Assembly: GCA_016935985.1 (NCBI GenBank) | Contig: JAFGPW010000004.1 | Location: 152,752-216,751 of the forward strand | DNA: 64,000 nt | Reading direction: 5' to 3' | From: Candidatus Woesearchaeota archaeon | GTDB lineage: Archaea > Nanobdellota > Nanobdellia > Woesearchaeales > JAFGPW01 | Shown: piece by piece, positions 1,614 through 51,303 of the stretch | Numbering within the stretch: position 1 is the first letter of the stretch | Layout: each line of letters starts with the position of its first letter | The notes under the pieces: generated by a model | The model's input: the letters and a program-made list of their open reading frames with translations, nothing else | What the model was told of the DNA's origin: nothing | Databases searched by the model: none | Translations under genes and position numbers: made by a program

Positions 1614-2288
1614 TCATTTCTTCGGCGGCGGCGCGGTCACCGCGCCCTTGATCGCGTTCGTCACGCGGGTGAGCTCGTTCACGTTCTCGGTGAAGGTCGG
1701 GAGCACCTTCGAGAAGACCTTCTCCATCGCCTTGAGCTCCGCCCCGATGTTGGTGATGTTCTGGTCGTACTCGCCGATGCGGCCGAGCACGCCCTTATGG
1801 AGCGCGTCGAACTCGGCGCGCATGTCCTTCATCTGCTGCTCGAGCTGGGCGATCTTCGCCTCGGTCTTGTTCTTCCACTCGATGATTTTGTTGATGTTCT
1901 TTACGAGCTCGTTCCACTTCTCGTCGATGATGGCCTCCGCGAGCTCCTCGATGCGCTCGACGTCGGTGCTGCCTGCCGAAGTGTAGGGCTGCTCCATGCC
2001 GCCTGCCTGGCCGTAGCCCTGCGACGCTGGCTGTGGGCTGAATATCATGGGATTCCCGGGGGCGGGATTGCTGAACTGGTCGGGTGGCATCTTCTCTACA
2101 CCTCCTTTTATGTCTGCCTGGTTGATCGCGTCGAAGACCTGCGTCTGGTTGTACCCCTCACGCTGGAGGGTCTGGATGATCTGGTTGTTCGAGAGCCCCT
2201 GCTGGCGCATCGCGACCACTGCCTCGAGCGGAAGCCCTGGCTGGAGCTGAGGAGCCGCCGTATTCCCATCCTTCTTCTTGCCGAACAT
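1614..2288 (-). CDS. Hypothetical coiled-coil protein (small N-terminal globular domain, P/Q/G-rich linker, C-terminal coiled coil)
   Basis: Heptad-like pattern in the C-terminal 110 aa, a low-complexity Pro/Gln linker and a K-rich tail. It is divergent from the pilus-like operon. Confidence 0.5.
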   Translation of the reverse strand: MFGKKKDGNTAAPQLQPGLPLEAVVAMRQQGLSNNQIIQTLQREGYNQTQVFDAINQADIKGGVEKMPPDQFSNPAPGNPMIFSPQPASQGYGQAGGMEQPYTSAGSTDVERIEELAEAIIDEKWNELVKNINKIIEWKNKTEAKIAQLEQQMKDMRAEFDALHKGVLGRIGEYDQNITNIGAELKAMEKVFSKVLPTFTENVNELTRVTNAIKGAVTAPPPKK

Positions 2289-2368
2289 GGCGCATGCACC
2301 TCAGAACGCGAGCACGATACAGAGCCCTGAACGAACGTCCCGGGAGAGAATTCAGTCGTCCTTGGTTT

Positions 2369-2857
2369 TTAAAGCTTTCGCTTCAGGAGGGCGCTCTCGA
2401 CCTCCTGCTCGACGATCCGCTCGACCTCGCGTTGGGTCACGAAGTTTATCGGCTCCCACATCTCGATGTACTTCTTCAGGATAGTCACATTGTCCTTCTT
2501 CGCGCAGGTCCGTAGCTCCTGGATGATGACCTTCATCTTCTCGCGCAGGTCGATGATGTCGCGGCGCAGTTCCTGGATGTCGAGGTTCGCGGTCTTGATC
2601 TCGTCGAGCGCCGTCCGATGCTGGTTGATCATGTTCTGCTCGGTCACCTGGAGCTTGCGCTGGAGGTTGGTGTAGCGCTCCTCCATGATCCGCATCCTGC
2701 GCAACAGGTCGTTTATTGAGTTCAGGATCTCCGCGAGGTCAGGTCCGGGAGCGGGCTTGCCGCCGCCGAAGAGGCCGTGCTTCGCCGGCTGGGCGGGCGC
2801 CCCCTGCGAGGGCTCCATGCTCGGGAACGGCGGCGGAAGGTTGTCTGCCATGGGCAT
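2369..2857 (-). CDS. Hypothetical coiled-coil protein with a P/G-rich N-terminus (possibly a FlaC/prefoldin-like coiled coil)
   Basis: ORF with continuous heptad periodicity (LRRMRIMEERYTNLQRKLQVTEQNM...). It lies in tandem with the 1614-2288 gene on the same strand. Confidence 0.5.
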   Translation of the reverse strand: MPMADNLPPPFPSMEPSQGAPAQPAKHGLFGGGKPAPGPDLAEILNSINDLLRRMRIMEERYTNLQRKLQVTEQNMINQHRTALDEIKTANLDIQELRRDIIDLREKMKVIIQELRTCAKKDNVTILKKYIEMWEPINFVTQREVERIVEQEVESALLKRKL

Positions 2858-2968
2858 AACCAGGTCGAGAGACCTCTTAAAGTTTGTGTTAGCATATGGC
2901 AGTGGTAAGCATGGCCGGCAGACGACGGCACCGCAAGATTAAAGAGAAGGATCTGCCACGCCGTTTCC

Positions 2969-3634
2969 ATGCCGTTCTCCTGCCTCCACTGCGGCGCCTG
3001 CTGCGAGCTCCCCGAGACCCAGATCGCGGTCACCCTGGGGGACATCAGGCGGCTCTCGCGGCACATCGGGAAGCCAGTGGCAGAGCTCTTCAGGGAGCGC
3101 ATCGGCTTACGGCCGTTCGCTGTCGATGGTTCCTGCACGGTCTTTAAGACCGGTCTCGGCCTGAGGATACCCTGTGCGAGCAGGGAGGGCAGGCGGTGCG
3201 CCGTTTATCCTGCGCGGCCGCTCAACTGCCGGCTCTTCCCATTCCACCTGCTCGCTCGGATGAGCCAGGAGGAGCTCGATGCCTTCGACGACCCTGCTGT
3301 CCGCTGCATGCAGGGCATCTCGATCTCAGCGGAGGAAAGGGGGAAGTACCGCCGGTATGTCGAGCGTCTCGCCGATATCCTCGCGAGGGAGCAGGCGGCG
3401 ACCGAAGCTCTGCTCAAGGAGCACGGCCTTCTCAGGACGGTCGACATCACCACGCATGAGGACATCTCCCGGCTGTGCGCCGGAAGCGGCAGGGAGAGGG
3501 ACAGGGAGCTCGTCCGGCTCGCGGTCCGGATGATCGAGGGGCAGCCCCTGCCAGACCTGCCGTCACTCGTCGCGGAGGCGATCAGGCGTCATGCGAAGAC
3601 GCTCGCCGACACGCTCCCTCCTAATCCCATCTGA
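2969..3634 (+). CDS. YkgJ/UPF0153 family Fe-S or Zn cluster protein (CxxCxxCC; the family includes flagellin N-methylase FliB)
   Basis: N-terminal CLHCGACC motif and a downstream RP..C..FPF motif. It lies directly upstream of the PilB/PilC-like operon. Confidence 0.65.
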   Translation: MPFSCLHCGACCELPETQIAVTLGDIRRLSRHIGKPVAELFRERIGLRPFAVDGSCTVFKTGLGLRIPCASREGRRCAVYPARPLNCRLFPFHLLARMSQEELDAFDDPAVRCMQGISISAEERGKYRRYVERLADILAREQAATEALLKEHGLLRTVDITTHEDISRLCAGSGRERDRELVRLAVRMIEGQPLPDLPSLVAEAIRRHAKTLADTLPPNPI

Positions 3635-3661
3635 TCCCCTCCCGATGTGCGTCGCCGATAG

Positions 3662-3680
3662 AAATATTTATAAATAACTA
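3662..3680 (+). promoter_or_regulatory. Archaeal BRE/TATA-like element (gaaatatttataaataact) for the RHH-pilB-pilC operon
   Basis: An AT-rich TATA box in otherwise GC-rich DNA, about 80 nt upstream of the first RHH GTG start codon; the predicted TSS lies near 3700. Confidence 0.45.
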
Positions 3681-3700
3681 AATTAACATATCCTAGTAAA

Positions 3701-3736
3701 GGAGCTTAGTTTGATTAACTAACTTAACTAAGCTCC
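3701..3736. repeat. 11-bp perfect inverted repeat GGAGCTTAGTT(n14)AACTAAGCTCC with internal TTAACTAA direct repeats; candidate operator
   Basis: Read directly from the sequence. It sits at the predicted TSS, between the TATA box and the RHH start codon. Confidence 0.6.
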
Positions 3737-3756
3737 CGCGACGAGGCGCGATCGGC

Positions 3757-3891
3757 GTGGGACGCATCAACATCGAGCTCGAGGACGAGGTCCATCGGAA
3801 GATACGCGCGGTTTCTGCCCTCAAGGGCATCACGCTCATCGAGTACATCAACCAGGCGCTGAAAGAGAGTGTGGGACAGGAGAGGATTTGA
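3757..3891 (+). CDS. Small ribbon-helix-helix (CopG/antitoxin-like) DNA-binding protein, 44 aa, GTG start
   Basis: VGRINIELEDEVHRKIRAVSALKGITLIEYINQALKE matches the beta-strand plus two-helix RHH pattern. A second copy follows immediately. Confidence 0.5.
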   Translation: MGRINIELEDEVHRKIRAVSALKGITLIEYINQALKESVGQERI

Positions 3892-4026
3892 GTGGGACGC
3901 ATCAACATCGAGCTGGACGACGCGGTGCACCGCAAGGCGAAGGCCGTCTGCGCGCTCAGAGAGATCACGCTCATCGAGTTTGTCAACCAGGCGCTGAAAG
4001 AGAAGATCGCGAAGGAGAAGATATGA
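3892..4026 (+). CDS. Small RHH-like protein, tandem paralog (about 68% identical to the upstream copy), GTG start, stop overlaps the ATPase start (ATGA)
   Basis: VGRINIELDDAVHRKAKAVCALREITLIEFVNQALKEKIAKEKI; it lies in a different frame from the ATPase, and the ORF-track 3888 start is an artefact. Confidence 0.5.
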   Translation: MGRINIELDDAVHRKAKAVCALREITLIEFVNQALKEKIAKEKI

Positions 4027-6317
4027 TGGCACTGTTCGGAAACAACCCGAAACCCGACTCGTATGAGATCGTCCGCGAGGGCGACGAGGACATCATGCGC
4101 ATCGACTATGAGGATGCGACGATACTCCCCTCTATCGAGGACAACCCCGTCGTGATGGGCAGGACGATCGACAAGCTGATGGAGTCGCCGAACGTCTCGA
4201 AGATCGTCTTCATCCAGAAGCGAGACTATGAGTACGACTTCGCCCAGACCCAGGTGCTCGCCGAGATCGCCCGCCTCTACAAGCAGCTGATCAAGCAGCG
4301 CGACCTCGTCGGCTACCAGGCGGTCGCCGGCGGCAGGGGACGGATGGCGGATGCGCGCTACACGCGCCTCCAGAACATCATCATGAACCTGATGAAGACT
4401 GACCCTGTCGGCGCCTACATCGAGCTCAAGCGCTTCGCGAGGAATGAGCGCATCGAGATGCAGAAGACAATCGAGACCGAGCACACCCGGCAGATGAACC
4501 GCTTCGTCCAGGTGCTCGACTACATCGTCGAGAAGCTCGAGGCGACGAGGCTCATCACGCTCGCGCGGCCGCACATCGCCGGCTATGAGGTGGGCGACCG
4601 CAGCGTCTACCGCAGGATCTTCACCCCGTTCATCAAGCCGGACTTCATGTTCACCAAGCTCATGTCGACCTACCCCGTCGACGCCGAGGAGATGGCGAAC
4701 TACACCGTCGGCGACGACATCGAGATTACGATCTTCAAGCAGCCGGACAACGTGCAGTACATCTACCATGTCATCCCGCCGGAGTTCAAGCTCGACGAGG
4801 ACAAGTACGAGCTGCTCGACATGGCGCGAAAGATCATGGCCGAGCACAAGCCCAAGAAGAGCGAGTTCGTGGACCCCAAGCGCATGCGCCAGGTGTTCTT
4901 CAACGTCGGCCACGACCTCCTCGAGGAGCTCGCCGATTACAAGAACATCCGCATGCGGGGCAAGGATCTCGACAAGCTCACGAACATCCTGGTCAGGTAC
5001 ACCGTCGGCTTCGGCCTCATCGAGGTGCTCCTCGCCGACGAGAAGATCCAGGACATCTCCATCAACTCACCCATGGGGAAGATCCCCATGTTCATCGTGC
5101 ATGGCGACTTCGACGACTGCACGACGAACATCGTGCCCACCCGCACCGAGGCGGAGAGCTGGGCGTCGAAACTCAGGCTCATTTCAGGCAGGCCCTTGGA
5201 CGAGGCTGATCCGATTCTGGACACCGAACTCGAACTCCCCGGAGCGTCCACACGCGTGTCAGTGATTGCTCCCCCACTCAATCCAACGGGCCTTGCCTAT
5301 TCTTTCCGGCGGCACCGCGACCGGCCGTGGACGCTGCCCCTCTTCATCAAGAACAGGACCATCAACGACCTCGCGGCGGGCCTCTACTCGTTCCTCATCG
5401 ACGGGACGAGGGCGATGCTGATCGCCGGCACCAGGAGCTCGGGCAAGACCTCGTTCCTCTCCGGGCTCCTCATCGAAATCATGCGGCGCTACAGGATGAT
5501 CACCATCGAGGACACGCTCGAGCTCCCCACGGGGTCCATGCGCGACCTCGGCTTCAACATCCAGCCGATGAAGGTCGCGAGCGCGCTCGCGCGCGGCGGC
5601 ACCGAGATGGACGCGACCGACGGCATCAGGTCGACGCTGCGCCTCGGCGACTCGGCACTGATCGTCGGCGAGGTGCGCAGCAAGGAGGCGGTGGCGCTCT
5701 ACGAGGCGATGCGGGTCGGCGCCGCCGCGAACGTCGTCGCCGGCACCATCCACTCCGACTCCCCCTACGGCGTCTTCGACCGCGTGGTGAACGACATAGG
5801 TGTGCCGAAGACGTCCTTCAAGGCGACCGACATCATCACCGTGGTGAACCCCATCAAGAGCGCGGACGGCATGCACAAGTTCCGCCGCGTCCTCTCCATC
5901 ACCGAGGTGCGCAAGTTCTGGAACGAGGATCCAGTGGCGGAAGGGGGCTTCGTCGACCTCATGAAGTACGACGCGCGGCAGGATACGCTCGTCCCCACCG
6001 ACGAACTCGTCAACGGCGATTCGGAGTGCCTCAAGACGATCGCGGGCAACGTCCGCGACTTCGCCGGCAACTGGGACGCGGTCTGGCAGAACATCCAGCT
6101 CCGCGCGAACATCAAGAAGGCGATCGTCGACGTCGCCGAGCAGTACAGCGACCCCGAGCTCCTCGAGGCCGAGTTCGTGATACGCTGCAACGACGCCTAC
6201 CACATCATCGCCGAGCGGGTGAAGGAGGAGACCGGCGTCTTCGACAACGACCGCATCTTCTACGAATGGATGGAGTGGCTGAAGCGGGACATCAAGAAGC
6301 GAAAGATGATAACGTGA
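4023..6317 (+). CDS. Type IV pilus/archaellum-family secretion ATPase (FlaI/PilB/VirB11 superfamily), unusually long at 764 aa
   Basis: Walker A motif GTRSSGKTSFL, Asp box and Walker B motif (ITIEDTLEL), and the His-box region. An N-terminal extension and a ~170-aa C-terminal extension flank the FlaI-like core. Confidence 0.8.
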   Translation: MMALFGNNPKPDSYEIVREGDEDIMRIDYEDATILPSIEDNPVVMGRTIDKLMESPNVSKIVFIQKRDYEYDFAQTQVLAEIARLYKQLIKQRDLVGYQAVAGGRGRMADARYTRLQNIIMNLMKTDPVGAYIELKRFARNERIEMQKTIETEHTRQMNRFVQVLDYIVEKLEATRLITLARPHIAGYEVGDRSVYRRIFTPFIKPDFMFTKLMSTYPVDAEEMANYTVGDDIEITIFKQPDNVQYIYHVIPPEFKLDEDKYELLDMARKIMAEHKPKKSEFVDPKRMRQVFFNVGHDLLEELADYKNIRMRGKDLDKLTNILVRYTVGFGLIEVLLADEKIQDISINSPMGKIPMFIVHGDFDDCTTNIVPTRTEAESWASKLRLISGRPLDEADPILDTELELPGASTRVSVIAPPLNPTGLAYSFRRHRDRPWTLPLFIKNRTINDLAAGLYSFLIDGTRAMLIAGTRSSGKTSFLSGLLIEIMRRYRMITIEDTLELPTGSMRDLGFNIQPMKVASALARGGTEMDATDGIRSTLRLGDSALIVGEVRSKEAVALYEAMRVGAAANVVAGTIHSDSPYGVFDRVVNDIGVPKTSFKATDIITVVNPIKSADGMHKFRRVLSITEVRKFWNEDPVAEGGFVDLMKYDARQDTLVPTDELVNGDSECLKTIAGNVRDFAGNWDAVWQNIQLRANIKKAIVDVAEQYSDPELLEAEFVIRCNDAYHIIAERVKEETGVFDNDRIFYEWMEWLKRDIKKRKMIT

Positions 6318-6373
6318 GCCCTGACAGCCGCGGACCGGCCGGCCGGGGAAGAAAAGAGAGGTGAGCGGGCGGC

Positions 6374-8614
6374 ATGCCTGAGATAGAGAGGAAGGAGATC
6401 GAGGATATCCTGAAGAAGTACCAGCGCAAGCTCGACGAGGATCTTGGCGAGGAGGAGGTGACCGCCGAAGTCAGGCCCGGGAGCTCCCGCGAGTACCGCC
6501 AGTTCAAGACCGAGATACTGCCGCCGCACATGACCGCCTATGAGACGCTGTGCAACCTCTCCGAGAGGATAATCAAGATACCCCCCGACAGGAGGAAGGA
6601 GGCGAGGCTCCTCGAGTCAATCGAGACCTGCCATCTCAACATCACGCCCACCGGCGTCACCACCTTCGCGATGGTCCTCCCGGTCCTCGTGCTCGTTCTC
6701 GGGTCCGGCATCTCCTTCCTCGTCTACGAGGAGGTCTTCTTCACCCTGTTCTTCGCGATTATCGCGGTCTCTCTCATCTTCCCGCTCTCGAACCTCCCTC
6801 ACACCCTCGCCGAGCGATGGCGGATGCGCGCCTCGAACGAGATGGTCCTCTCGATATTCTACATCGTGACGTACATGCGCCACACCTCGAACCTCGAGCG
6901 CGCCATCAACTTCGCGGCGGAGCACCTCAACGGCCCGCTCGCGCTCGACCTCAAGAAGGTCGTCTGGAACGTCGAGACCGAGAAGTACGAGTCGATCAAG
7001 GAGTCGCTCGACATGTACCTCGAGAGCTGGCGCAAGTACAACCTTGAGTTCATCGAGGCGTGCCACCTCATCGAGTCCTCGCTCTATGAGGGGTCGGAGG
7101 ACCGGCGCCTGCTGATGCTCGACAAGGCGCTCGCCGTCCTCCTCGAGGAGACGTACGAGAAGATGCTCCACTACGCGCAGAACCTCAAGAGCCCAATCAC
7201 GACGCTCCACATGCTGGGCATCATCCTGCCGGTGCTCGGCCTCGTCATCCTGCCGCTCGTCGTGAGCTTCATGGAGGGCGTCAGGTGGTACCACATCGCG
7301 ATGCTGTACGACGTCGCGCTCCCGGCGATCGTCTACTATATGGGGAAGAGCATCCTCGGGACGCGCCCCACCGGCTACGGCGAGGCGGACATATCGAAGC
7401 ACAGGCGCATGAAGAAGTACCGGGATATCCTCATCACCATCGCCGGCTTCGAGATCAGGCTCTCGCCGCTCTGGTTCGCTGTCATCATCTTCGCCGTGTT
7501 CTTCCTCCTCGGCCTCTCGCCCATCATGCTCAACGCGATGAACTGCAACTTCGACTACGTGGTCGCGTCGGAAGGCTCGAAGACCGTCTTCAAGACCGTC
7601 TTCTCCGACACGCCGCAGTGCGACGGCGTCGTCGAGCCGACGGCGACCTTCTACTTCCTCGGCTACCGCGAGGCCCAGAAGCCGGACGAGGAGTCAGGAG
7701 AGATACGGCCGATCGGCCCGTTCGGGTTCGGCGCCGCGGTCCTCTCGGTCTTCATCCCGGTGGCGCTGGGGATCGCCATTGGCTTCTATTACAAGAAGCG
7801 CTCGCAGAACCTGATCAAGATCAGGAAGGATGCCAAGCAGCTCGAGGACGAGTTCGCCTCAGCCCTCTTCCAGCTGGGCAACCGGCTCGGCGACGGGCTG
7901 CCTGCCGAGATCGCCTTCGACAAGGTGGCGGAGGTCATGGCCGACACCAAGTCCGGCGCGTTCTTCTCGATTGTCTCGGGCAACATCAAGAAGATGGGCG
8001 TCGGGGTCGAGCAGGCGATCTTCGACCCGCAGTTCGGGGCGATGAAGTACTACCCGTCGAACGTCATCGAGTCGAGCATGAAGGTGCTCATCGAGAGCAT
8101 CAAGAAAGGCCCGCAGATCGCGGCGCAGGCGCTCGTGAACGTATCGCAGTACATCAAGGAGATGCACCGCGTGGAGGAGCGGCTCAAGGACCTCCTCTCT
8201 GACATCATCTCGTCGATGAAGTCGCAGATCAGCTTCCTTACCCCAGTGATCGCAGGGATCGTCGTCGGCATCACGGCCATGGTCTCCGGCATCCTCGGCC
8301 AGCTCCAGATCCAGATGGCGCAGATCGCGGCCAAGACCGAAACCGGCGTGGGCTCGATCGTGTCGCTGTTCGGCGACGGGATCCCGACCTACTATTTCCA
8401 GGTCATCGTCGGCATCTATGTCGTCTCGCTCGTCTACATCCTGACCGTCATCACGAACGGCATCGAGAACGGGCAGGACAAGCTCAACGAGCGGTTCCTT
8501 CTCGGCAGGAACATGACCAAGAGCACGATGCTGTACACCGTCGTCTCGACGGTGATCATGCTGCTGTTCAACTTCATCTCCTCGCAGATACTCTCCGCGA
8601 CGCTCGCGCCATGA
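6374..8614 (+). CDS. FlaJ/TadC/PilC-like polytopic membrane platform protein (two T2SS-F-like domains), 746 aa
   Basis: Two repeated cytoplasmic helical domains, each followed by TM helix clusters. It lies immediately downstream of the ATPase, and a purine-rich SD-like stretch precedes the ATG. Confidence 0.75.
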   Translation: MPEIERKEIEDILKKYQRKLDEDLGEEEVTAEVRPGSSREYRQFKTEILPPHMTAYETLCNLSERIIKIPPDRRKEARLLESIETCHLNITPTGVTTFAMVLPVLVLVLGSGISFLVYEEVFFTLFFAIIAVSLIFPLSNLPHTLAERWRMRASNEMVLSIFYIVTYMRHTSNLERAINFAAEHLNGPLALDLKKVVWNVETEKYESIKESLDMYLESWRKYNLEFIEACHLIESSLYEGSEDRRLLMLDKALAVLLEETYEKMLHYAQNLKSPITTLHMLGIILPVLGLVILPLVVSFMEGVRWYHIAMLYDVALPAIVYYMGKSILGTRPTGYGEADISKHRRMKKYRDILITIAGFEIRLSPLWFAVIIFAVFFLLGLSPIMLNAMNCNFDYVVASEGSKTVFKTVFSDTPQCDGVVEPTATFYFLGYREAQKPDEESGEIRPIGPFGFGAAVLSVFIPVALGIAIGFYYKKRSQNLIKIRKDAKQLEDEFASALFQLGNRLGDGLPAEIAFDKVAEVMADTKSGAFFSIVSGNIKKMGVGVEQAIFDPQFGAMKYYPSNVIESSMKVLIESIKKGPQIAAQALVNVSQYIKEMHRVEERLKDLLSDIISSMKSQISFLTPVIAGIVVGITAMVSGILGQLQIQMAQIAAKTETGVGSIVSLFGDGIPTYYFQVIVGIYVVSLVYILTVITNGIENGQDKLNERFLLGRNMTKSTMLYTVVSTVIMLLFNFISSQILSATLAP

Positions 8615-8739
8615 GCAGGGGACGGGCGGCGGCAGGACGATAAGGAGGAAGGGGGAAACGGGGATGAGAACCGACGGTTCCGTCCGTTGAGACCGAAGGC
8701 CGGCATGCGCAGCACGCAGCCGACCGAAGAAGAAGGGAG

Positions 8740-8813
8740 TGGGAACGCGGGGATTTGAACCCCGGACCCCTACGTCTTCAGCGTAGTGCTCTCCCAGTCT
8801 GAGCTACGTTCCC
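8740..8813 (-). tRNA. tRNA-Phe (GAA)
   Basis: The reverse complement folds as a cloverleaf with acceptor GGGAACG/CGUUCCC, anticodon loop CUGAAGA, T-loop TTCAAAT and discriminator A. It is 74 nt long. Confidence 0.85.
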
Positions 8814-8846: not shown

Positions 8847-9278
8847 CTAGTCCTCGTCGGGGTCGTCGATGTCCTCCTCCTCGAGGTCAATGCCAGCATC
8901 GTCGTCCGGACCCTCATCCGGTTCGTCGGCAGGCGCAGGCTTCGACGCAGGAGCAGGCTTCACCGCCGGCGCGCCGGGGAGCGTCTCCTGCGCCTCGAGC
9001 ACCTCGATCTGACCGAACTTGCCGGTGCCGAGCTGCTTCTCGCCCTGCCACTCGCTCACATAACCATTCGTGATATGGACCTTGCAGCCGGGCTTCACGC
9101 GATCGATGTCGTCGTTCCAGAGCGTGAGCTTTATCTCGCCCGTCTCGTCCTTCGCGGTCGCGTTCGCCACGCGGCCGCTCTTCCCGAACTTCGAAAACTC
9201 GCGCACCTGGCCGACATCGGTCACCTCGACGATGATGTCGACGTTGCCCTGGCGCGCCTCGAGATCCTTGATTGCCAT
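8847..9278 (-). CDS. ssb: Single-OB-fold ssDNA-binding protein (SSB/RPA-like) with an acidic C-terminal tail
   Basis: The OB-fold region carries aromatic/basic ssDNA-contact residues, and the D/E-rich tail is DEPDEGPDDDAGIDLEEEDIDDPDED. A TATA-like box lies ~30 nt upstream. Confidence 0.65.
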   Translation of the reverse strand: MAIKDLEARQGNVDIIVEVTDVGQVREFSKFGKSGRVANATAKDETGEIKLTLWNDDIDRVKPGCKVHITNGYVSEWQGEKQLGTGKFGQIEVLEAQETLPGAPAVKPAPASKPAPADEPDEGPDDDAGIDLEEEDIDDPDED

Positions 9279-9327: not shown

Positions 9328-10833
9328 TTATTCCTTCATAAGCGCCGAGAAGGCGATGCCCCCTTCCAGGAGCCTGCCGAGGACCTCCGCGAGCTCCCTG
9401 GTCCTCACCCTTGCCTGCGCGGTCGTCTCGCGGTCCCGGACCGTCACGGTCCCGTCCTCGAGACCTTCGAAGTCGACGGTGACGCAGTAGGGGATGCCGA
9501 GCTCGTCGGCGCGGGCGTACCGCCTGCCGATGCTCCCTGAGCGGTCGAACTGGGCGACGAAGGCCTTCCTGAGGGTGCCGAAGACCTTCCGCGCCTCTGC
9601 GTCGAGCTTCCCCACGAGCGGGAAGACCGCGACCTTCGTGGGCGCGAGCTGGGGGTGGAAGCGCAAGACGATATTGCCCCGTTCCTTATCGTCGTCATAG
9701 GCCTCATAGAGGAACGCGAGCAGCGCGCGCTCGATGCCCTGCGAGGGCTCGGACGCGACATAGGGCCTGACCTTCTCGCGCGTCTCCTCGTCGAAGTAGG
9801 CGAGCTCCTTGCCCGAGAACTCGGCATGCCGGTCGAGGTCGAAGGTCGTCCGGTCGGCGTTGCCGTGGATCTCCTTCCAGCCGGACGGGAAGCGGTATTC
9901 TATGTCGAAGCAGGCCGCCGCATAATGGGCGAGCTCGTCCTTCGCGTGCTCCCGGAGCCTGAGGCTCTCCGGCCGGATGCCGTAATCGAGGAAGAACTGG
10001 CAGAATCCCGCGAGCCAGTAGGCGTGCCAGGGGCCCGCCTTCTTGCGCGCGACAAGCTCCTTGAAGGTGATCGTCTCCGCTTCCTTTGCCCCATCGAACA
10101 GGACCGCGACCGTGAGGTCGGCCACATCGGCAAGGAGCGGGCAGTCGTCCTTCTTTTTCCCGTCCACGAAGAACTCGATCTCGAACTGCTCGAACTCGCG
10201 GGAGCGGAAGAGGAAGTCCCGGGGGCTGATCTCGTTCCTGAAGGCCTTGCCGGTCTGGGCGATGCCGAACGGCAGCCTGACCCGAGCGGTGTCGAGCACC
10301 TGCTTGAAGTCGGTGAAGATGACCTGCGCGGTCTCGGGCCTGAGGTAGGCGACGCTTTTTGGGTCCTTCCCTGCGCCCACGTTCGTCTCGAACATGAGGT
10401 TGAAGGCTGCTCCTTTCGAGAGGGATTTATTGCATTTCGGGCAGGCGAGCCGCTCATTCTCGATGATATGGTCGATCCGCTCGATCGGGACGCCGTCGAC
10501 GTCCTTTCCGAGCACGTCAGCTATCAGCAGGTCTGCCCGGTACTTCTCCTTGCAGCCGGTGCAGACGAGCATGATGTCGTTGAATTTCTCGGTATGGCCG
10601 GAGGCCTCCCACACGCGCGGGTGGGTGATGATTGCGCCGTCGATGCCCACGATGTCCTCCCGCTCCCAGACGAATCGCTTCCAGAAGAGGCGCTTGATGT
10701 TGTTCTTGAGCTCGACACCTTGAGGTCCGAAGTCCCAGAAGCCCGCGAGCTTCCCGTATATCTCGGAGGAGGGATAGACAAGCCCTTTCTTCTTGGCGAA
10801 GGCCGCCATCTCCTCGATCGAGGGTTTTGCCAT
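9328..10833 (-). CDS. glyS: Glycyl-tRNA synthetase, archaeal/eukaryotic alpha2 type
   Basis: The WDFGPQGVELKNNI motif, class II motifs and an anticodon-binding C-terminal domain, ~500 aa. A TATA-like box (aatatata) lies ~30 nt upstream. Confidence 0.85.
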   Translation of the reverse strand: MAKPSIEEMAAFAKKKGLVYPSSEIYGKLAGFWDFGPQGVELKNNIKRLFWKRFVWEREDIVGIDGAIITHPRVWEASGHTEKFNDIMLVCTGCKEKYRADLLIADVLGKDVDGVPIERIDHIIENERLACPKCNKSLSKGAAFNLMFETNVGAGKDPKSVAYLRPETAQVIFTDFKQVLDTARVRLPFGIAQTGKAFRNEISPRDFLFRSREFEQFEIEFFVDGKKKDDCPLLADVADLTVAVLFDGAKEAETITFKELVARKKAGPWHAYWLAGFCQFFLDYGIRPESLRLREHAKDELAHYAAACFDIEYRFPSGWKEIHGNADRTTFDLDRHAEFSGKELAYFDEETREKVRPYVASEPSQGIERALLAFLYEAYDDDKERGNIVLRFHPQLAPTKVAVFPLVGKLDAEARKVFGTLRKAFVAQFDRSGSIGRRYARADELGIPYCVTVDFEGLEDGTVTVRDRETTAQARVRTRELAEVLGRLLEGGIAFSALMKE

Positions 10834-20896: not shown

Positions 20897-21769
20897 ATGA
20901 GAATTATACTGAAGCGACGGGACATCGCAGCCATGCTGCTCGCTCTCACCGCACTCTTCCTGGTCCCCTCAGCCCCTGACGCCCTCGCCGCGGTCACGAA
21001 CATCACCTTCACGGTCCACCTCACGGTCGGCAACTATCCGCCGACAATCGATTGGATTGTCACTGTCCCCGCCCAGGACCCGACCGAAGCTGCCAACACC
21101 ACGTTCTACGTCTGGTACAACGTCTCCGATCCTGACGGCGCCGGAACCATCAACAACAACACCGCCGAGGTCGTGATCAACCGGTCCGGCGTCTCGCTCA
21201 CCGCGATCAGCTGCTCGAACGCCACGATCAACGGCACCATGCAGACAATCAACTGCACCATGGAGATCGAGTATTACCGGAACGCCGGCGGCTGGGACAT
21301 CAACGTCTCTATCAGGGACATCAGCTCGGCGTTCGCGAACGACACATCCAACTCCTTCACGTACAACATGCTCTCCGCGCTCTGGATGAACACGACTGCG
21401 ATTAGCTTCGGGAGCGTCAACATCGGCCAGACGAACGTCGCGCCGAACTCCTCTCTCGTGCTCAACAATACGGGGAACGTCGACTTCACCGAGGTCAACA
21501 TAACGGCGTACGACCTCGTCGGCTTCACGAACCCCAGCTACTCGATCGCAGCCGACAACTTCACCGTCCGCCTGAACGCATCGACCCTCGGCGGCGATGT
21601 TCTCGACAACGTGACGAACACGACGGTCACCGGCGCGACGGTGCCGCACGGCGCGCCGCCGGCATCGAACGAATCGCTCTGGATCTACATCAACCAGGTC
21701 CCCGGCGGCCTGATCTCGCAGGACTACAACACCACAAACTCTCTCGATTGGTGGGTCCTCGTCGGATAA
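20897..21769 (+). CDS. Secreted protein with a Sec signal peptide and about 20 N-x-S/T sequons in 290 aa (predicted heavily N-glycosylated surface protein)
   Basis: The signal peptide is MRIILKRRDIAAMLLALTALFLVPSAPDALAA. The sequon count was made by eye. Confidence 0.6.
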   Translation: MRIILKRRDIAAMLLALTALFLVPSAPDALAAVTNITFTVHLTVGNYPPTIDWIVTVPAQDPTEAANTTFYVWYNVSDPDGAGTINNNTAEVVINRSGVSLTAISCSNATINGTMQTINCTMEIEYYRNAGGWDINVSIRDISSAFANDTSNSFTYNMLSALWMNTTAISFGSVNIGQTNVAPNSSLVLNNTGNVDFTEVNITAYDLVGFTNPSYSIAADNFTVRLNASTLGGDVLDNVTNTTVTGATVPHGAPPASNESLWIYINQVPGGLISQDYNTTNSLDWWVLVG

Positions 21770-21771
21770 GC

Positions 21772-22365
21772 ATGATGGTCTTTGGATACCAAACCCTGGC
21801 GCTACTCTGCACGCTCATCCTGGCGGCAATCCCGTCCGCTGTGGCTATTGGGGTCGCCGCCGACTACCTCGAGGGCGACGTTCTCGAGCTGCCGCAGGGC
21901 GGCTGGACGACGTATGGTATCAGGCTCCAGAACCCGACGTCGGGGACCTATGAGGTCGAGCTCGACTACGACGATTCCCTCGGGACAGTCATCGGCGGGC
22001 AGAAGCGCTTCATCCTCGAGCCCCAGACATACAGGAACGCGGTCACCTTCAACATCACTGGCCCGCCGGGAGCCCGGCCGGGCGACGAGTTCACCTTCTT
22101 CTACTCTATGGTGCCAATCGTCCAGCCCGATTCGGGGGCGATCTCCATCAAGACCCGGGTCGGCAACCGGTTCACGCTGCGGATCGTGGGGAATCCTGAC
22201 CTCATCCCTCCGGACGGGGAGCAAGCCTCATCCGGCGCAGCGACGGCGAACCCGTGGCTGCTCGTGGGCATCCTCGTCCTCGCGTCGGGAATCGCGTACG
22301 TCCTCGCCGGCAGGACCGTCAGCGACGGCGGACCCCTTCCTAGGCAAAAGCGAAGGATTAAATAG
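21772..22365 (+). CDS. Secreted protein with a C-terminal TM anchor and basic tail; second gene of the glycoprotein pair
   Basis: N-terminal hydrophobic signal MMVFGYQTLALLCTLILAAIPSAVA; C-terminal LLVGILVLASGIAYVLAG then RQKRRIK. The ATG lies 3 nt after the upstream stop codon. Confidence 0.55.
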   Translation: MMVFGYQTLALLCTLILAAIPSAVAIGVAADYLEGDVLELPQGGWTTYGIRLQNPTSGTYEVELDYDDSLGTVIGGQKRFILEPQTYRNAVTFNITGPPGARPGDEFTFFYSMVPIVQPDSGAISIKTRVGNRFTLRIVGNPDLIPPDGEQASSGAATANPWLLVGILVLASGIAYVLAGRTVSDGGPLPRQKRRIK

Positions 22366-22386
22366 GCCGCATCCCTCCTTCGGGCC

Positions 22387-23109
22387 ATGGCGAGGATCGC
22401 GAGGGAGAGGTGGAAGACCAGGGACGCGGTCTTCGACCAGTTCACGCTGCGCACCCTGTTCAGGCTCTCGGCGACGCTCGGCCTCTCAGAGGACATAAGC
22501 CCGATGAAGATCGGCAAGGAGGCGAATGTCTTCTCGGCGAGGACGGACGACCGGACGGTCGCGATCAAGATCTACCGGCTCGAGACATGCGACTTCAACC
22601 GCATGTACGACTACATCAGGTACGACCCCCGTTACGCGCACCTCAAGAACAACCGCCGCAAGACCATCTTCGCCTGGACGCAGCGCGAGTTCCGCAACCT
22701 GCAGAAGGCGCACGCCGCCGGCGTCACCGTCCCCCAGCCGTATGCGTTCTCGAACAATATCGTGGCGATGCAGTTCATCGGCGGGAGCGAGCCTGCCCCG
22801 CAGCTCAAGGACGCGCGGCCCTTGGACCCTGACAGGTTCTTCGCTGACACAGTCTCGTCGCTCCAGCTGCTCTACCGCGCCGGCCTCGTGCACGGCGATC
22901 TCTCCACATTCAACATCCTCAACGACGATGAGCGGCCGGTGCTGATCGACTTCTCCCAGGCGACACCGACGAACAGCGCGCGCGCCGACGAGCTCCTCGC
23001 AAGGGACGCGAAGAATCTCGCCGGATACTTCGCCAAGCTCGGCATACGGACCGACCCCGCCTCGTTCGCAGACAGGGTGCGGGCATCGGGGCCCATCCAC
23101 AAGATTTAA
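22387..23109 (+). CDS. rio1: RIO-type serine/threonine protein kinase (Rio1)
   Basis: RIO domain motifs: the VAIKIYR lysine, the catalytic loop LVHGDLSTFNIL, and DFSQA. Confidence 0.85.
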   Translation: MARIARERWKTRDAVFDQFTLRTLFRLSATLGLSEDISPMKIGKEANVFSARTDDRTVAIKIYRLETCDFNRMYDYIRYDPRYAHLKNNRRKTIFAWTQREFRNLQKAHAAGVTVPQPYAFSNNIVAMQFIGGSEPAPQLKDARPLDPDRFFADTVSSLQLLYRAGLVHGDLSTFNILNDDERPVLIDFSQATPTNSARADELLARDAKNLAGYFAKLGIRTDPASFADRVRASGPIHKI

Positions 23110-23134
23110 AAAAGGGGTTCGATTTGCCAGGGGC

Positions 23135-23704
23135 ATGACCCGGTTTTCCTATGAGCTCAAGGTCCCGAGAGAACGTATCGCGGTCCTCATCGGCAAGAAC
23201 GGCGAGGTGAAGCGGCAGCTCGAGGAGCTCACCCGTTCGACCATCAGGGTTGACTCCGAGGAAGGGGACGTCTTCGTCGAGGGCGACGATGCGCTCTCGC
23301 TCTACACCACGCGCGAGATAATCCAGGCGGTCTCCCGCGGCTTCAACCCTGAGGTGGCGACGCTCCTCCTCAAGCAGGACTACGCCCTCGAGATACTCTC
23401 CATCGCCGACTTCGCGAAGACCAAGAACCATCTGGTGCGGATCAAGGGACGCATTATAGGGAGCGAGGGGAAGGCCCGGCGGGCCATCGAGGCGCTCACC
23501 GACGCCCACATCTCGGTGTACGGCAAGACCGTCGCGATCATCGGCGAGACCGAGGCGGCACTCTACGCCAAGCGGGCGATCGAGATGCTGCTCTCGGGCA
23601 GCCCGCACACGAACGTCTACAAGATGCTCGAGAAGCGTCGCAAGGAGATGAAGCTGAAATGGATGCTGCCGCGGGACGATGGTAAGGGGGACGAAGAGCC
23701 ATGA
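23135..23704 (+). CDS. KH-domain RNA-binding protein (Dim2/Pno1-like partner of Rio kinase)
   Basis: Two KH-like segments with GKNG/GSEG loops ([17 protein letters not shown]), placed immediately after rio1. Confidence 0.7.
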
Positions 23705-25380
23705 GCGCTGATATGGACAGCATCAAGACGAAGGCGCAGGAGATGGCGACCAAGCAGCGCGAGATATCGGTCGCCGAGTTCTTCGCCAAGAACCGCCACC
23801 TGCTCGGCTTCGACAACAAACGCAAGGCCCTGATGACGACGGTGAAGGAGGCGGTCGACAACTCGCTCGACGCGTGCGAGGAGGCAGGGATACTCCCTGA
23901 GGTCTCTATCGATATCATCGACATGAAGGAGGACCGGTACCGGATCATCGTCGAGGACAACGGGCCGGGCATCGTCAAGCAGCAGATTCCGAAGATCTTC
24001 GCGAAACTCCTCTATGGCAGCAAGTTCCACCGGCTGAAGATGAGCCGCGGCCAGCAGGGGATCGGCATCTCGGCGTCGGTCATGTACGCCCAGATGACGA
24101 CCGGCAGGCCCGCGAAGATCGTCTCCAAGATCCACCCGAACGAGCCGGCACACTACTACGAGCTCCATATCGATACCGAGAAGAACCGGCCCGACATCGT
24201 CAAGGAAGACACGGTCGAGTGGGCGAAGGAGCACGGGACCAAGATTGAGCTCGACCTCGAAGGCACCTACCAGGTTGGGAACCAGTCGGTCGACGAGTAC
24301 CTCAAGGAGACCGCGATCACGAACCCCCATATCACCATCATCTACACCAATCCCAAGGCCCAGCAGCTGATATTCCCGCGCGCGACCGAGACGCTGCCCG
24401 ACGAGCCGAAGGAGATCGCGCCGCACCCGTACGGCGTCGAGCTCGGCATGCTCTTCAAGATGATGCAGCAGACGCAGTACCGGACGCTCCAGGCGTTCCT
24501 GACGAACGAGTTCTCGCGCGTCGGCGCGGGCACCGCGAAGCAGATTTGCGAGAACGCTGCGCTGCTCCCGAACGCCGCCCCCTCCAAGCTCTCGCGCGTG
24601 CAGGCGGAGCAGCTGCTCAAGGGGATCAACGCGACGAAGATCATGGCGCCGCCGACCGATTGCATCAGCCCGATCGGCGCCGACCCCCTTGAGAAGGGCC
24701 TGCGGAAGGAGATCAACGCCGAGTTCTACGCGACGACGACCCGGTCGCCGGCGGTCTATCGCGGCAATCCCTTCATCATCGAGGTGGGCATCGCCTACGG
24801 CGGCGACCAGCCGGGCGACACGCCGGTCAGGCTCATGCGGTTCGCGAACAGGGTGCCGCTCCTCTACCAGCAGGGCGCGTGCGTCATGAACAAGGCGACG
24901 GTCGGCACGGCCTGGCGGTCCTACGGCCTCTCCCAAAGCCAGGGGGCGCTTCCCGTCGGACCGATGACGATCATCATCCACATCGCGAGCGTATGGGTGC
25001 CGTTCACCTCGGAGTCGAAAGAGGCGATCGCGCACTACCCGGAGATCTACAAGGAGATGAGGCTCGCTCTCCAGGAGGTCGGGCGCAAGCTGTCGAGCTA
25101 CGTGAACCGGAAGAGGCGGGTGCGCGACGAGCTCAACAAGCGCTCGTTCATCGAGAAGTACATCCCGCATGTCGCTGAGGCGCTCAAGGAGCTCGTCGGC
25201 GCGAAGGGGTTTGACGGGCGCGCGGTCGAGGAGTCGCTCAAGAAGATCCTCGAGAAAAAGCGCGGCACGGTCGAGCCGCTGGAGTTCGACAAGGAGGCGA
25301 ACGTCGATTTCGACGAGGAGTTCGCGCGGATAGGGAAGGAAGGCGATGAGGAAGGAGAGGGAGGCGATGACGATGAGTGA
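23701..25380 (+). CDS. top6B: DNA topoisomerase VI subunit B
   Basis: GHKL ATPase Bergerat fold ([20 protein letters not shown]), 559 aa, and an acidic C-terminal tail. Confidence 0.9.
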
Positions 25381-26458
25381 GGAGACCGGGAAGCGGATAC
25401 AGGGCATCGCGAAGGGCATCTACGACGACATCCTCAGGAAGAAGCAGCCCCACGTCGACATGCCGCTGCGCTCTCTCCAGAACGTCACCTACGACCCGAA
25501 GGAGGGGTATTTCCAGCTCGACGGCAAGGTCAAGCAGCGCACGCTCACGGCATCCACCATCAAGACCTTCGCCCAGACGCTGCGCATGATGGCGCTCTCC
25601 AAGGACCTGGTCTCGGCCGATGACATCGCGACGAAGAGGGAGGTCTACTACGTCTCCAAGAACTGGGACGAATGCCGATTCAACGAGCAGGCCGAGTCGG
25701 ACAACGTGATGGACGACATCGAGGCGATGCTCATGATGAACCGCGAGCAGATGGGCTTCATCCCTGAGGAGAAGGGAGGGGCGGTCGCCGGACGGCTCAC
25801 GGTCATCGACAAGGATCCGGAGACGGGAAAAGAGATCAAGATTGATTGCACCAAGATGGGATCGGGCGCGTACTCCATCCCGAACAGCGTCGAGGAGCTG
25901 CAGTTCGAGACCAAGGCCGACTTCATCCTCGCGATCGAGACCGCCGGTATGCACCAACGGCTGGTCAAGCATCTCTTCTGGAAGAAGAAGAACTGTATCC
26001 TCATCTCCCTCGGCGGTGTCCCCACGCGCGCCTGCAGGAGGTTCATCAGGCGCCTCGCCGACGAGCATAGGATCCCGGTCTACGGCTTCGTCGACGGCGA
26101 TATGTACGGCTGGACGAATATCTACCGGACGCTGAAGGTGGGGTCGGGCAACGCCGCGCACATCAACAAGTATTTCTGCGTGCCGCAGGCGAGCCTCTTC
26201 GGCATCACCGCCCAGGACATCGTCGACTACAAGCTGCCGACACACCCTCTGAAGGAGGTCGACATCAAGAGGGGCAAGGACGCGCTCAAGAACGACCCGT
26301 TCATCATCCAGCACAAGGAATGGCAGAAGTGCATCAAGGACCTCATCGCGATGCGGAAGAGGGCGGAGCAGCAGGCTCTCGCCAAGCACGGCCTCAATTT
26401 CGTGATCAGCGATTACTTGCCGGCGAAGCTCGAGAACGACCAGACCTGGCTGCCGTGA
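25346..26458 (+). CDS. top6A: DNA topoisomerase VI subunit A (Spo11 homolog)
   Basis: The Spo11/TopoVIA catalytic Tyr region and a Toprim domain (E..DGD). It overlaps the 3' end of top6B, and the true start may be the Met at 25367. Confidence 0.9.
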
Positions 26459-26505
26459 CGGATCCCGGGCAACATTTATAAATGGACCCTGCATCCTCCG
26501 GTCAT

Positions 26506-26618
26506 GGACCTGTAGCCCAGCCTGGATAAGGCGCCGGCCTTCTACGCGAGGATCGGAGCTCTCGGGCTCTCCTTGCAAAGAGAGCCGGAGATCGGGGGTT
26601 CGAATCCCTCCAGGTCCA
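26506..26618 (+). tRNA. tRNA-Arg (UCU) with a ~38-nt intron at the canonical 37/38 position
   Basis: Acceptor GGACCTG/CAGGTCC; anticodon stem CCGGC/GCCGG with loop C-U-UCU-A interrupted by the intron; T-loop TTCGAAT; discriminator A. A TATA box (tttataaa) lies ~30 nt upstream. Confidence 0.7.
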
Positions 26619-26673
26619 TTAACGGCAAATCAAAACTTTTATTAACGTGCATGGTGTTGCCGTGCCTACGAAT

Positions 26674-26799
26674 GCGGGGGTAGCCAAGCGGCTAAGGCGA
26701 TCGGCTGCAGAGCCGGTACCGCGATCGGTACGACGGGTCCTGCGGGACGATGACTGCGCTGATACCGATTATTCGGGGGTTCGAATCCCCCCCCTCGCT
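26674..26799 (+). tRNA. tRNA-Cys (GCA) with a ~53-nt intron at the 37/38 position
   Basis: Acceptor GCGGGGG/CCCTCGC (one G-U pair); anticodon stem ATCGG/CCGAT with loop C-U-GCA-G then the intron; T-loop TTCGAAT; discriminator U, the Cys identity element. An oligo-T tract follows. Confidence 0.65.
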
Positions 26800-26806
26800 T
26801 TTTTCT
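26799..26806 (+). terminator. Oligo-T tract (TTTTTTCTTC) after tRNA-Cys; archaeal-type terminator
   Basis: Poly-T immediately 3' of the tRNA. Confidence 0.4.
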
Positions 26807-26865
26807 TCTCTCTCACTCCATGAGCAACAGATTTAAATAGCACCATCGCGGGTATCACCATCGGG

Positions 26866-28083
26866 ATGGACTGGCATCATCACAAGGAACTGGTCATGCT
26901 GCTCTTGTTCCTCATGGCGGCGTTCGTCCTCAGCGCGCTTGTCGTCATCCTCAAGGTGACCCCCGGTTATCTCGGCCATCTGGTCGCGGAAGGCGGCAAC
27001 ATGACGAGCTTGAACATCAGCCAGCGCGAGCAGGCCGCAAGCTGGGAGGGAGTGTATGGGAACATCAGCGTCGGCGGCAGCGCCATGAGCGTCTCGGTCG
27101 GAGGCGGCGCGATCCAGCGGGTCGACATCGTCACCGCTGACAGCGGATACGCGAACGGCTCATTCAATGTCTATGCCTCCAACCAGTCGAGCCTCGACTT
27201 CGCCTGTCTCGAGCCGGCGGCGCCGTCCGACGTGGACCTCCACCTCGGCGTGGGCGCCGGCAGCCTCGGCTCCGGCACCGGCACCTTCACCGCGCAGGCG
27301 CTCTTCATGGTCTATGGCCAGAACGCGAGCCACCTGCTCAACGCGACCCTCACAAACCCGCCATCGAGCGGGTTCTGGGAAGGCATCATGCGCGACAACA
27401 GCACCGGCAACCTCGTGTTCGTCGGGAAAGTGCTGCCCGCAGGCGTCGCCTACAACGGCGAGACCGTCAACTATCAGCTGCTGCTACCGGTGAGCCCCAG
27501 CGGGAACGACACATACCATTTCTTCCTCGACCAATACGGCTGCACCGAGGAGATCGAGATCGAGCTCGCCGACAACCTCATCTCGTTCGTGTGCAACCCT
27601 ACCGACCCGAACATCTCGGTGGTTCTCGCGCCGATCGACGGCGAGTACGAGTCTGCGCACCACTACGACGACGAGGACCCGATCGACCATTGGAAGGTCT
27701 ACAACCCGGCGCTGCCCGGCTGGGTCGTGCAGGACCTCGCGACGCTCAACAGCTCGATGGGATTCTGGCTCAAGATGAACGCCTCTGACAACCTGACCGT
27801 CACCGGCTCCATGACCGGGAATAAGTTCCAGCCTCTCGGACTCGACTACAACATGGTGGGCTATCCGACGACCGTGCCGATGGCGATTAACCTCTCGCTC
27901 GCGAGCATCGAGAACAACTACACATCGATCCACATGTACAACGCATCTGACACTGCGGACCATTGGAAGGTCTACAACCCGGCGCTGCCCGGCTGGGTCG
28001 TGCAGGACCTCACGCGGACGGTGCCGCACCAAGGGTACTGGATACGCATGAACCAGACCGAGGTCTGGGAGATTATGTGGTGA
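26866..28083 (+). CDS. N-terminally membrane-anchored surface protein with two ~50-aa repeats of the form (S.H.YNA.D.ADHWKVYNPALPGWVVQDL...G(F/Y)W(I/L)(R/K)MN)
   Basis: A TATA box (gatttaaata) ~30 nt upstream, a leaderless ATG, an N-terminal hydrophobic segment MLLLFLMAAFVLSALVVIL, and repeats at aa ~265-315 and ~355-405. Confidence 0.6.
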   Translation: MDWHHHKELVMLLLFLMAAFVLSALVVILKVTPGYLGHLVAEGGNMTSLNISQREQAASWEGVYGNISVGGSAMSVSVGGGAIQRVDIVTADSGYANGSFNVYASNQSSLDFACLEPAAPSDVDLHLGVGAGSLGSGTGTFTAQALFMVYGQNASHLLNATLTNPPSSGFWEGIMRDNSTGNLVFVGKVLPAGVAYNGETVNYQLLLPVSPSGNDTYHFFLDQYGCTEEIEIELADNLISFVCNPTDPNISVVLAPIDGEYESAHHYDDEDPIDHWKVYNPALPGWVVQDLATLNSSMGFWLKMNASDNLTVTGSMTGNKFQPLGLDYNMVGYPTTVPMAINLSLASIENNYTSIHMYNASDTADHWKVYNPALPGWVVQDLTRTVPHQGYWIRMNQTEVWEIMW

Positions 28084-28086
28084 GTA

Positions 28087-28898: not shown

Positions 28899-28962
28899 CC
28901 GTCGCATCTCTCCATTGTCGTCTTTTCAGACCGAAAGGTATAAATAGGAGCGAATCCACTTT

Positions 28963-51298: not shown

Positions 51299-51303
51299 GA
51301 TTC

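Follow-up and report, generated by a model that had tools for sequence, protein, structure and literature searches.

Which kind of machine is encoded by an archaeal operon that unites a secretion-type ATPase with a large polytopic membrane protein, that has no pilin gene in its surroundings and that is headed by two tiny regulator-like genes? This question is raised by a locus within a 64-kb stretch of contig JAFGPW010000004.1 from a Candidatus Woesearchaeota archaeon. The whole stretch is called the window here and all positions are counted within it. Between 3757 and 8614 four tightly packed genes follow each other head to tail on the plus strand, namely two genes for ribbon-helix-helix (RHH) proteins, an assembly ATPase gene and a platform gene (Table 1). 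A first-pass annotation made from the DNA itself had already proposed this arrangement of two 44-residue RHH proteins, a 764-residue ATPase and a 746-residue membrane protein, and we can confirm it. The answer we lean towards, with modest confidence, is that the locus encodes, in its Woesearchaeota form, a motor of the type IV filament kind that is spread across DPANN archaea, and that this motor would be ATP-driven, act on pilin-like subunits encoded elsewhere, possess a cytoplasmic scaffold and be autoregulated by its RHH proteins.

The packing of the four genes is very dense. The RHH1 stop codon is followed on the very next base by the start of RHH2, the RHH2 stop and the ATG of the ATPase overlap as ATGA, and only the platform gene is set apart by a gap of 56 nt, with GGTGA found 10 nt upstream of its start. 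All four genes show a G+C content at third codon positions (GC3) of 0.87-0.94. This matches the coding signature of the genome: the window has 62% GC and its genuine genes are recognisable by GC3 values of 0.8-0.95. Such a composition (62% GC, GC3 about 0.9) is strikingly high for Woesearchaeota, and relatives such as locus L001 possess AT-rich intergenic regions.

The ATPase matches the Pfam family T2SSE (PF00437) with 49.3 bits at a cut-off of 24.9. Its closest sequences in the PDB are the archaeal GspE from A. fulgidus (2OAP, 2e-25), CpaF (7e-24) and FlaI (1e-15), and a Foldseek search with its AlphaFold model returned the same proteins (2OAP 1.9e-13, FlaI 3.8e-13, CpaF 1.7e-8) with a two-domain fold like that of the solved members. 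The overall confidence of this model is moderate (predicted local distance difference test score 72). Among 25 homologues the Walker A motif GTRSSGKT at 469-476 (G469, K475, T476), the Asp box E496/D497, the Walker B residues G549/E550 and the His box residue H577 are all invariant. As judged from the sequence, the protein is an assembly ATPase of the type IV filament superfamily with all catalytic motifs intact, for which hexameric hydrolysis is predicted. It stays far under the NCBIfam equivalog cut-offs both for FlaI (NF058587; 127.4 versus 550 bits) and for TadA (116 versus 373 bits).

The unusual size of this ATPase is real. Alignments with PDB entries begin at query positions 297-322, corresponding to residues 109-119 of structures that are about 510 residues long, and end around position 657 of 764 (about 440 in the structures). 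This means that some 200 residues at the N-terminus are surplus compared with the solved structures, and a further 35 or so at the C-terminus. In the AlphaFold model a small alpha/beta domain (13-71) and a helical bundle (73-200) stand at the beginning of the chain and a helical extension (about 660-764) at its end. The best 120 homologues comprise 714-792 aa and share 63-69% identity in alignments spanning 94% of the query or more, and the first invariant columns of the alignment occur already at residue 19. A mis-set start codon as the cause of the length is ruled out by these equally long homologues together with the invariant columns. The N- and C-terminal extensions that had been postulated at first reading are thus borne out by the PDB alignments, the structural model and the length of the relatives.

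The membrane protein was more difficult to place. By sequence it has no match in Pfam or NCBIfam (E 0.01) or in the PDB, so PF00482 (T2SSF) is not reached directly, and its more than 3000 homologues are all annotated as “hypothetical”. A profile search of 1.84 billion representative sequences yielded 1256 clusters at 50% identity; the best 150 results all lie within the family itself, with no link to T2SSF among them. Divergent relatives provide the connection. When 10 divergent full-length members were scanned with Pfam, 8 of them matched T2SSF, one above threshold, and the member P0293 reached 40.5 bits against 25.2 in two stretches. The matches cover a first domain at about 150-300 and a second one at about 470-610, at the positions of the two predicted cytoplasmic bundles; weak precomputed T2SSF matches exist also for the relatives P0395 and P0347. 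For the protein from the window about nine transmembrane (TM) helices are predicted along with two cytoplasmic helical bundles (about 141-270 and 476-615) of the GspF/PilC type. Since divergent full-length relatives match PF00482, the platform belongs to the T2SSF kind, and structure combined with transitive homology identifies this “hypothetical” membrane protein of 700-770 aa as a two-domain platform of the PilC/TadC type. The original call of a FlaJ/PilC-like platform was therefore correct, though nontrivial with no direct library match to build on.

The best 120 platform homologues are 710-773 aa long and 55-60% identical, so that for both proteins the reported oversize is genuine, with hundreds of equally long homologues at 55-69% identity over the full length. 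The proposed source of the extra length in the platform was a large Cys-containing extracytoplasmic insert, and here the annotation was right only in part. A beta-rich extracytoplasmic loop indeed separates the two bundles (about 390-451, between helices 365-389 and 452-475), but it comprises only about 60 aa and is a minor share of the extra length; among homologues it is of variable length, and neither of its two Cys residues is conserved. A larger share is contributed by the N-terminal 140 or so residues. Both motor proteins belong to long, strongly conserved DPANN-specific subfamilies with conserved extra domains, and in the databases each has a 100% identical entry from a Candidatus Woesearchaeota genome.

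If this is a filament motor, where are the filament subunits? A crude scan for class III signals together with Pfam found no pilin, archaellin or A24 prepilin peptidase in the 64 kb, which bears out the description of the locus as pilin-less. Neither flaF, flaG, flaH nor an archaellin gene was found in the window or within 10 kb on either side of the relatives L001 and L002, and proteins with a class III signal are almost missing within 8 kb of the Woesearchaeota homologues. The statement that this is not a canonical archaellum locus holds up both on this gene content and on the FlaI equivalog score. The only weak pilin-like N-terminus of the window belongs to a 374-residue protein at 54926-56050 (minus strand), in which an N-terminal membrane anchor (MKKALLTILLVILIIIVLGLGYF) precedes a long coiled coil; this N-terminus has the look of an anchor and not of a prepilin.

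Other DPANN lineages present a different picture. Behind the long platforms of one Aenigmarchaeota genome (L086) and one “Nanohaloarchaeota” genome (L085) come genes whose products start with textbook class III signals such as MKG/IALEY.. and MSKKG/MSALEIV.. (the slash is ours). These runs of pilin genes (L086 10539-12799, L085 12135-13404) encode Cys-rich proteins whose N-termini read KG/hydrophobic..E, and in L085 an ATPase of 761 aa is located next to the platform in divergent orientation. In some DPANN lineages the platform family is hence tied to pilins, in contrast to the pilin-less locus of Woesearchaeota. Because the long platforms of L085 and L086 precede genes with class III signals, a pilus role is plausible for the family.

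The neighbourhood was compared by tblastn across 83 related loci (82 for the ATPase-platform and downstream counts). The conserved order comprises coiled-coil genes A and B, both leftward, then an RHH gene where present, the ATPase and the platform, all rightward; often an SSB-like oligonucleotide-binding (OB)-fold gene and a glycyl-tRNA synthetase (GlyRS) gene follow 3' of the platform on the minus strand. ATPase and platform adjoin in 70 of the 82 loci. Of the 83 loci, 39 have a homologue of coiled-coil protein A at the same place and in the same orientation, and 44 have a homologue of protein B lying between A and the ATPase. This means that the limits set originally for the module missed its upstream continuation, i.e. 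two conserved divergent coiled-coil genes at 1614-2857. Protein A (GC3 0.88) has at its N-terminus a small helical domain (..QGLSNNQIIQTLQREGY..) that a low-complexity linker joins to a coiled coil at the C-terminus. For neither protein is a TM segment or a signal peptide predicted, and no homology between them is detectable by hhalign (probability 0.9%). In Pfam and PDB both find weak matches of the coiled-coil type alone (tail fibre, designed coils and, for B, reovirus sigma-1 6GAO/6GAJ); we rejected the tail fibre, sigma-1 and designed-coil matches as signs of homology and regard them as coiled-coil noise. A match of a coiled-coil protein to DUF5798 is sub-threshold (20.7 bits, cut-off 27). 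The 221-residue CxxCxxCC gene between coiled-coil gene B and the RHH operon occurs in this genome alone, with no counterpart in the 83 loci.

Downstream, the SSB-like gene is syntenic with the platform in 46 of the 82 loci and GlyRS in 27. This linkage with housekeeping genes is unusually stable for a pilus-type module. Upstream of coiled-coil gene A about 35 relatives carry three paralogous genes for multi-TM proteins of about 195 aa (e.g. L001 6555-8397) with the motif ..LPFLLxFxxxFAxLxxxxxLG, and a relative of this triplet adjoins the Aenigmarchaeota platform (L086 6191-6778). The triplet is missing from the 64-kb window; it is probably an unrecognised component of the system. With one genome scanned per species, platform relatives were detected in at least 570 species genomes of Woesearchaeota and Nanoarchaeia, and more distant members in Aenigmarchaeota and in one metagenome-assembled genome (MAG) of “Nanohaloarchaeota”. 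The locus is no one-off oddity and turns out to be an example of a widespread and already reported DPANN locus type, a point missed by the first-pass annotation. Many of the locus-bearing MAGs (L004, L005, L007 and others) carry the title “uncultured Methanosarcinales archaeon”, probably a taxonomic mislabel.

Concerning the two genes at the head of the operon, RHH1 matches Pfam ParD with 27.8 bits (cut-off 27.3) and RHH2 remains below it at 17.7. They are paralogues with 68% identity, and a joint profile of this ParD-like type matches ParG (1P94, 1.8e-4), ParD, VapB30 and RelB. In L012, L020 and L047 the same tandem pair precedes the ATPase at the same place; their ATPases share only 65-68% identity with that of the window. 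A small gene stands directly ahead of the ATPase in 46 of about 70 loci: the ParD-like tandem pair in 4 and a second, CopG-like type in 42; about one third of the loci possess no RHH gene. Members of the CopG-like type are 46-50 aa long and highly conserved (MKKPISATIDxELIKWI..YRNKSHLIEIAL), with the core pattern “KKPISATID..YRNKSHLIE” in the 42 loci and a strand-helix-helix pattern. Because they have no Pfam match and only a weak full-length match to CopG/ParD (E about 0.5), their naming as RHH proteins rests on this pattern. Between the two types no homology is detectable, and the presence of two unrelated forms may be a case of non-orthologous displacement. In about two thirds of cases the ATPase is headed by an RHH-type gene, which makes such a gene a frequent built-in part of the locus. 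No ParE or PIN reading frame adjoins the pair in the window, where the next gene is the ATPase, and with no neighbouring toxin gene the pair does not qualify as a type II toxin-antitoxin system (ParDE/VapBC).

Upstream of this pair positions 3640-3740 form an island of 36% GC in a genome of 62% GC. All three TAACTAA matches of the 64 kb are located inside this island, with 0.42 expected. The perfect 11-nt inverted repeat is the only one of its kind in the window, and 12 of 20,000 local shuffles yield one; its place is downstream of the TATA-like box and upstream of the RHH1 start. In archaea the distance from the TATA box to the transcription start is usually about 25 nt, so that the inverted repeat would begin approximately at the start of transcription. 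Folded as RNA it reaches -23 kcal/mol (z -2.9). The box TTTATAAATA stands likewise upstream of the RHH pair in L020, and the TATA box, TAACTAA/AGTTA motifs and AACATAT are shared between the window and the promoters of L020 and L047, two loci with the same RHH type. An operon headed by two RHH genes and an AT-rich, palindrome-bearing promoter, as initially described, was therefore found.

Table 1. Position and description of features at the motor locus and in its immediate surroundings
Feature	Position	Strand	Description
Coiled-coil protein A	1614-2288	-	224 aa
Coiled-coil protein B	2369-2857	-	162 aa
CxxCxxCC gene	2969-3634	+	221 aa; PF03692, YkgJ-type
TATA-box-like TTTATAAATA	3667-3676	+	putative archaeal promoter of the RHH-ATPase-platform operon, read from sequence
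Three TAACTAA repeats	3675, 3716, 3725 (span 3675-3731)	+	candidate RHH binding sites
Perfect 11-nt inverted repeat GGAGCTTAGTT-N14-AACTAAGCTCC	3701-3711 / 3726-3736		candidate operator or hairpin of the 5' untranslated region (5'-UTR)
RHH1	3757-3891	+	44 aa; GTG start; ParD/ParG-like ribbon-helix-helix
RHH2	3892-4026	+	44 aa; GTG start; RHH1 paralogue
Assembly ATPase	4023-6317	+	764 aa; ATG start; FlaI/GspE/CpaF-type
Platform	6374-8614	+	746 aa; polytopic, PilC/GspF/TadC/FlaJ (T2SSF) kind
tRNA-Phe	8739-8813	-	downstream of platform
SSB-like OB-fold gene	8847-9278	-	Pfam Ssb-like_OB 34.5 bits
GlyRS (glycyl-tRNA synthetase)	9328-10833	-	downstream of platform

Two further regions of the window deserve mention. 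On the plus strand 20897-33666 encodes six secreted or membrane-anchored proteins with no Pfam match (290, 205, 405, 216, 178 and 1009 aa), which may be of surface or S-layer type. On the minus strand 46818-51307 comprises two paralogous permease-like multi-TM genes of about 405 aa, a gene for a secreted protein of 433 aa and an ABC-type ATPase-like gene; ahead of this cluster stands a small regulator-like gene (all seen in the open reading frame scan only).

How could such a motor work? By analogy with PilB/PilC, TadA/TadBC and FlaI/FlaJ, a hexamer of the ATPase would dock on the cytoplasmic bundles of the platform, and ATP-driven platform movements would lift subunits with class III signals from the membrane into a surface filament. 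These subunits would be encoded elsewhere in the genome, and the most likely use of the filament would be to contact a host or partner cell, a role already proposed in DPANN archaea. On the motor, the coiled-coil proteins and the N-terminal extra domains of the ATPase would most likely make up a scaffold or regulatory layer in the cytoplasm, comparable to FlaC/D/E or arCOG07564. From the gene packing RHH1 and RHH2 are expected to be co-translated with the ATPase, and the layout of the promoter suggests that they bind the TAACTAA/palindrome sites, which start approximately at the predicted transcription start, and in this way autoregulate the operon. The first-pass annotation had suspected a distinct, regulated apparatus. 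A type-IV-filament-type motor distinct from the archaellum is indeed present, whereas the regulatory role of the RHH pair and its “operator” is something that we infer. On the whole that interpretation is partly supported: it was largely right on identity and distinctness and is unproven on function and regulation.

Several points weigh against the filament motor that we prefer. With no filament subunit or peptidase found in the 64 kb, and almost none within 8 kb of the Woesearchaeota homologues, filament assembly remains a prediction for this lineage. The conservation of the ATPase (63-69%) and of the platform (55-60%) is unusually high for pilus genes and, together with the housekeeping synteny, would also fit an essential non-pilus function. 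The RHH gene is not obligatory, given the loci that do without it; the inverted repeat could be an RNA hairpin with a role in the 5'-UTR instead of an operator; and orthology with the loci of Ca. Nanohaloarchaeum antarcticus described by Hamm et al. (see below) is inferred from architecture and lineage, not from sequences. The main rival, to which we grant a real if minor chance, supposes that cluster-2 DPANN exapted ATPase and platform for an essential task different from pilus assembly, such as secretion or taking up host material through a cell-cell contact, with the coiled-coil proteins and the triplet of membrane proteins as its specific parts. It would account for the pilins not found in the window and at nearly all Woesearchaeota loci, for the very high conservation in at least 570 species, for the synteny with housekeeping genes and for the conserved lineage-specific extensions on both proteins, and the linkage of the triplet in about 35 loci and in the Aenigmarchaeota locus agrees with it. 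It has to face the fact that every characterised pair of an ATPase and a T2SSF platform acts on pilin-like subunits, that pilin genes directly follow homologous long platforms in other DPANN lineages and that archaellin/pilin-type genes of Woesearchaeota are reported to be encoded elsewhere and highly expressed (PMC11606122). A bolder variant is doubtful: an essential DPANN-specific machine made of ATPase, platform, coiled-coil partners, triplet and a dedicated RHH regulator, which no longer builds pili and powers exchange with or attachment to host cells, for example by a cell-cell bridge.

The downstream OB-fold gene invites another explanation, namely a competence-like DNA-uptake pilus that feeds nucleotide-auxotrophic DPANN archaea, with the SSB-like protein handling incoming single-stranded DNA. 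DNA import via pili has been proposed for DPANN (PMC9563170), and the gene accompanies the platform in 46 of the 82 loci compared. We consider this explanation very improbable, since neither a ComEC-like channel nor DprA or a nuclease is encoded at the locus and the OB-fold gene, lying on the opposite strand beside GlyRS, looks like an ordinary replication or repair gene in a housekeeping block. That the operon encodes the motor of a canonical archaellum (FlaI/FlaJ) whose other genes are located just beyond the window is effectively refuted. Public pipelines label some homologues as “archaeal flagellar protein FlaI”, and FlaI is among the best structural matches of the ATPase; against this stand the low equivalog score, the closer sequence similarity to archaeal GspE and CpaF, a platform that falls under even the generic T2SSF threshold, and flaH/F/G and archaellin genes found neither in the window nor within 10 kb of relatives. 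Finally, the RHH pair might represent orphan antitoxin-type genes (remnants of ParDE/VapBC) that came to lie upstream by chance and are unrelated to the motor. The best family matches are indeed the antitoxins ParD, VapB and RelB, and the ParD-like type is found in only 4 of about 70 loci. This chance association is improbable: no toxin gene adjoins, the same tandem pair has kept its position in three other genomes with rather diverged ATPases, another RHH-like gene holds this position in 42 loci, the overlap of stop and start codons ties RHH2 to the ATPase, and the window shares its promoter motifs with L020 and L047.

The module described here is among the few conserved lineage-specific candidates for the means by which DPANN archaea attach to their hosts and draw resources from them. 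How does it compare with known systems? Two conserved type IV pilus-like loci were described in cluster-2 DPANN including Woesearchaeota by Hamm et al. 2024 (Nat Commun 15:6449, PMC11291902, Fig. 4); both contain CpaF, TadC and coiled-coil proteins, one of the two contains filament genes, and proteins were detected by proteomics. The window agrees with them in its CpaF/TadA-like ATPase and TadC-like platform beside coiled-coil genes (1614-8614), in the lineages concerned (Woesearchaeota and, among the relatives found here, Aenigmarchaeota and “Nanohaloarchaeota”), in the existence of one locus without filament genes and in the weak coiled-coil resemblance to sigma-1 (6GAO), which was recovered here. 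The portions of that paper dealing with these loci mention neither an RHH gene nor unusual protein lengths nor a membrane-protein triplet. For the coiled-coil proteins, attachment or roles like those of nucleoporins are proposed there; those of the window lack an export signal. Makarova et al. 2016 (Makarova, Koonin, Albers; PMC4858521) described nanoarchaeal type IV pilus ATPases without identifiable cognate pilins and, in subclade 4F, an extra N-terminal ATPase domain and the intracellular coiled-coil partner arCOG07564. The additional N-terminal domain and the coiled-coil partner are alike in the window, a likeness by description and not by phylogeny; the N-terminal extension is not Cys-rich here and the DUF5798 match of the coiled-coil protein remains below threshold. 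Metagenomic papers mention “flaI, flaJ, flaK” for Woesearchaeota but offer no analysis of them. Cryo-electron tomography of another DPANN co-culture showed nanotubes that were attributed to the host (PMC11329633) and is not informative for the system considered here.

Among characterised machines the Tad/Flp motor (CpaF/TadA, TadB/TadC) and the archaeal GspE 2OAP come closest, with the best matches to the ATPase core, GspF/PilC-type bundles and adjacent genes. In contrast with them the window ATPase has about 250 aa more, the platform consists of a single fused protein of 746 aa with about nine TM helices, and genes for pilin, peptidase and secretin-type proteins are not present at the locus. 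FlaI/FlaJ (ArlI/ArlJ) belong to the same superfamily and form the same two-gene core; the failed FlaI equivalog cut-off, the lack of FlaH, FlaF/G, FlaC/D/E and archaellins and the different extensions set the window locus apart. The RHH proteins, putative DNA binders, resemble autorepressors of the CopG/ParD type in size (44 aa), strand-helix-helix pattern, position at the head of an operon that they would control and repeats or palindrome at the promoter, and differ from them by forming a tandem pair. To our knowledge no characterised type IV filament locus includes such a protein.

The basic layout has already been described (Hamm 2024, Makarova 2016) for a system whose function is uncharacterised. 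The present analysis adds the identity of the platform, the conserved extra domains, the RHH component in two forms and a promoter/operator candidate, which sharpen this known system and do not change its kind. Compared with these earlier descriptions, the RHH component with the tandem ParD-like pair replacing the usual CopG-like gene, the TAACTAA/palindrome promoter and the linked triplet of membrane proteins seem to be described here for the first time.

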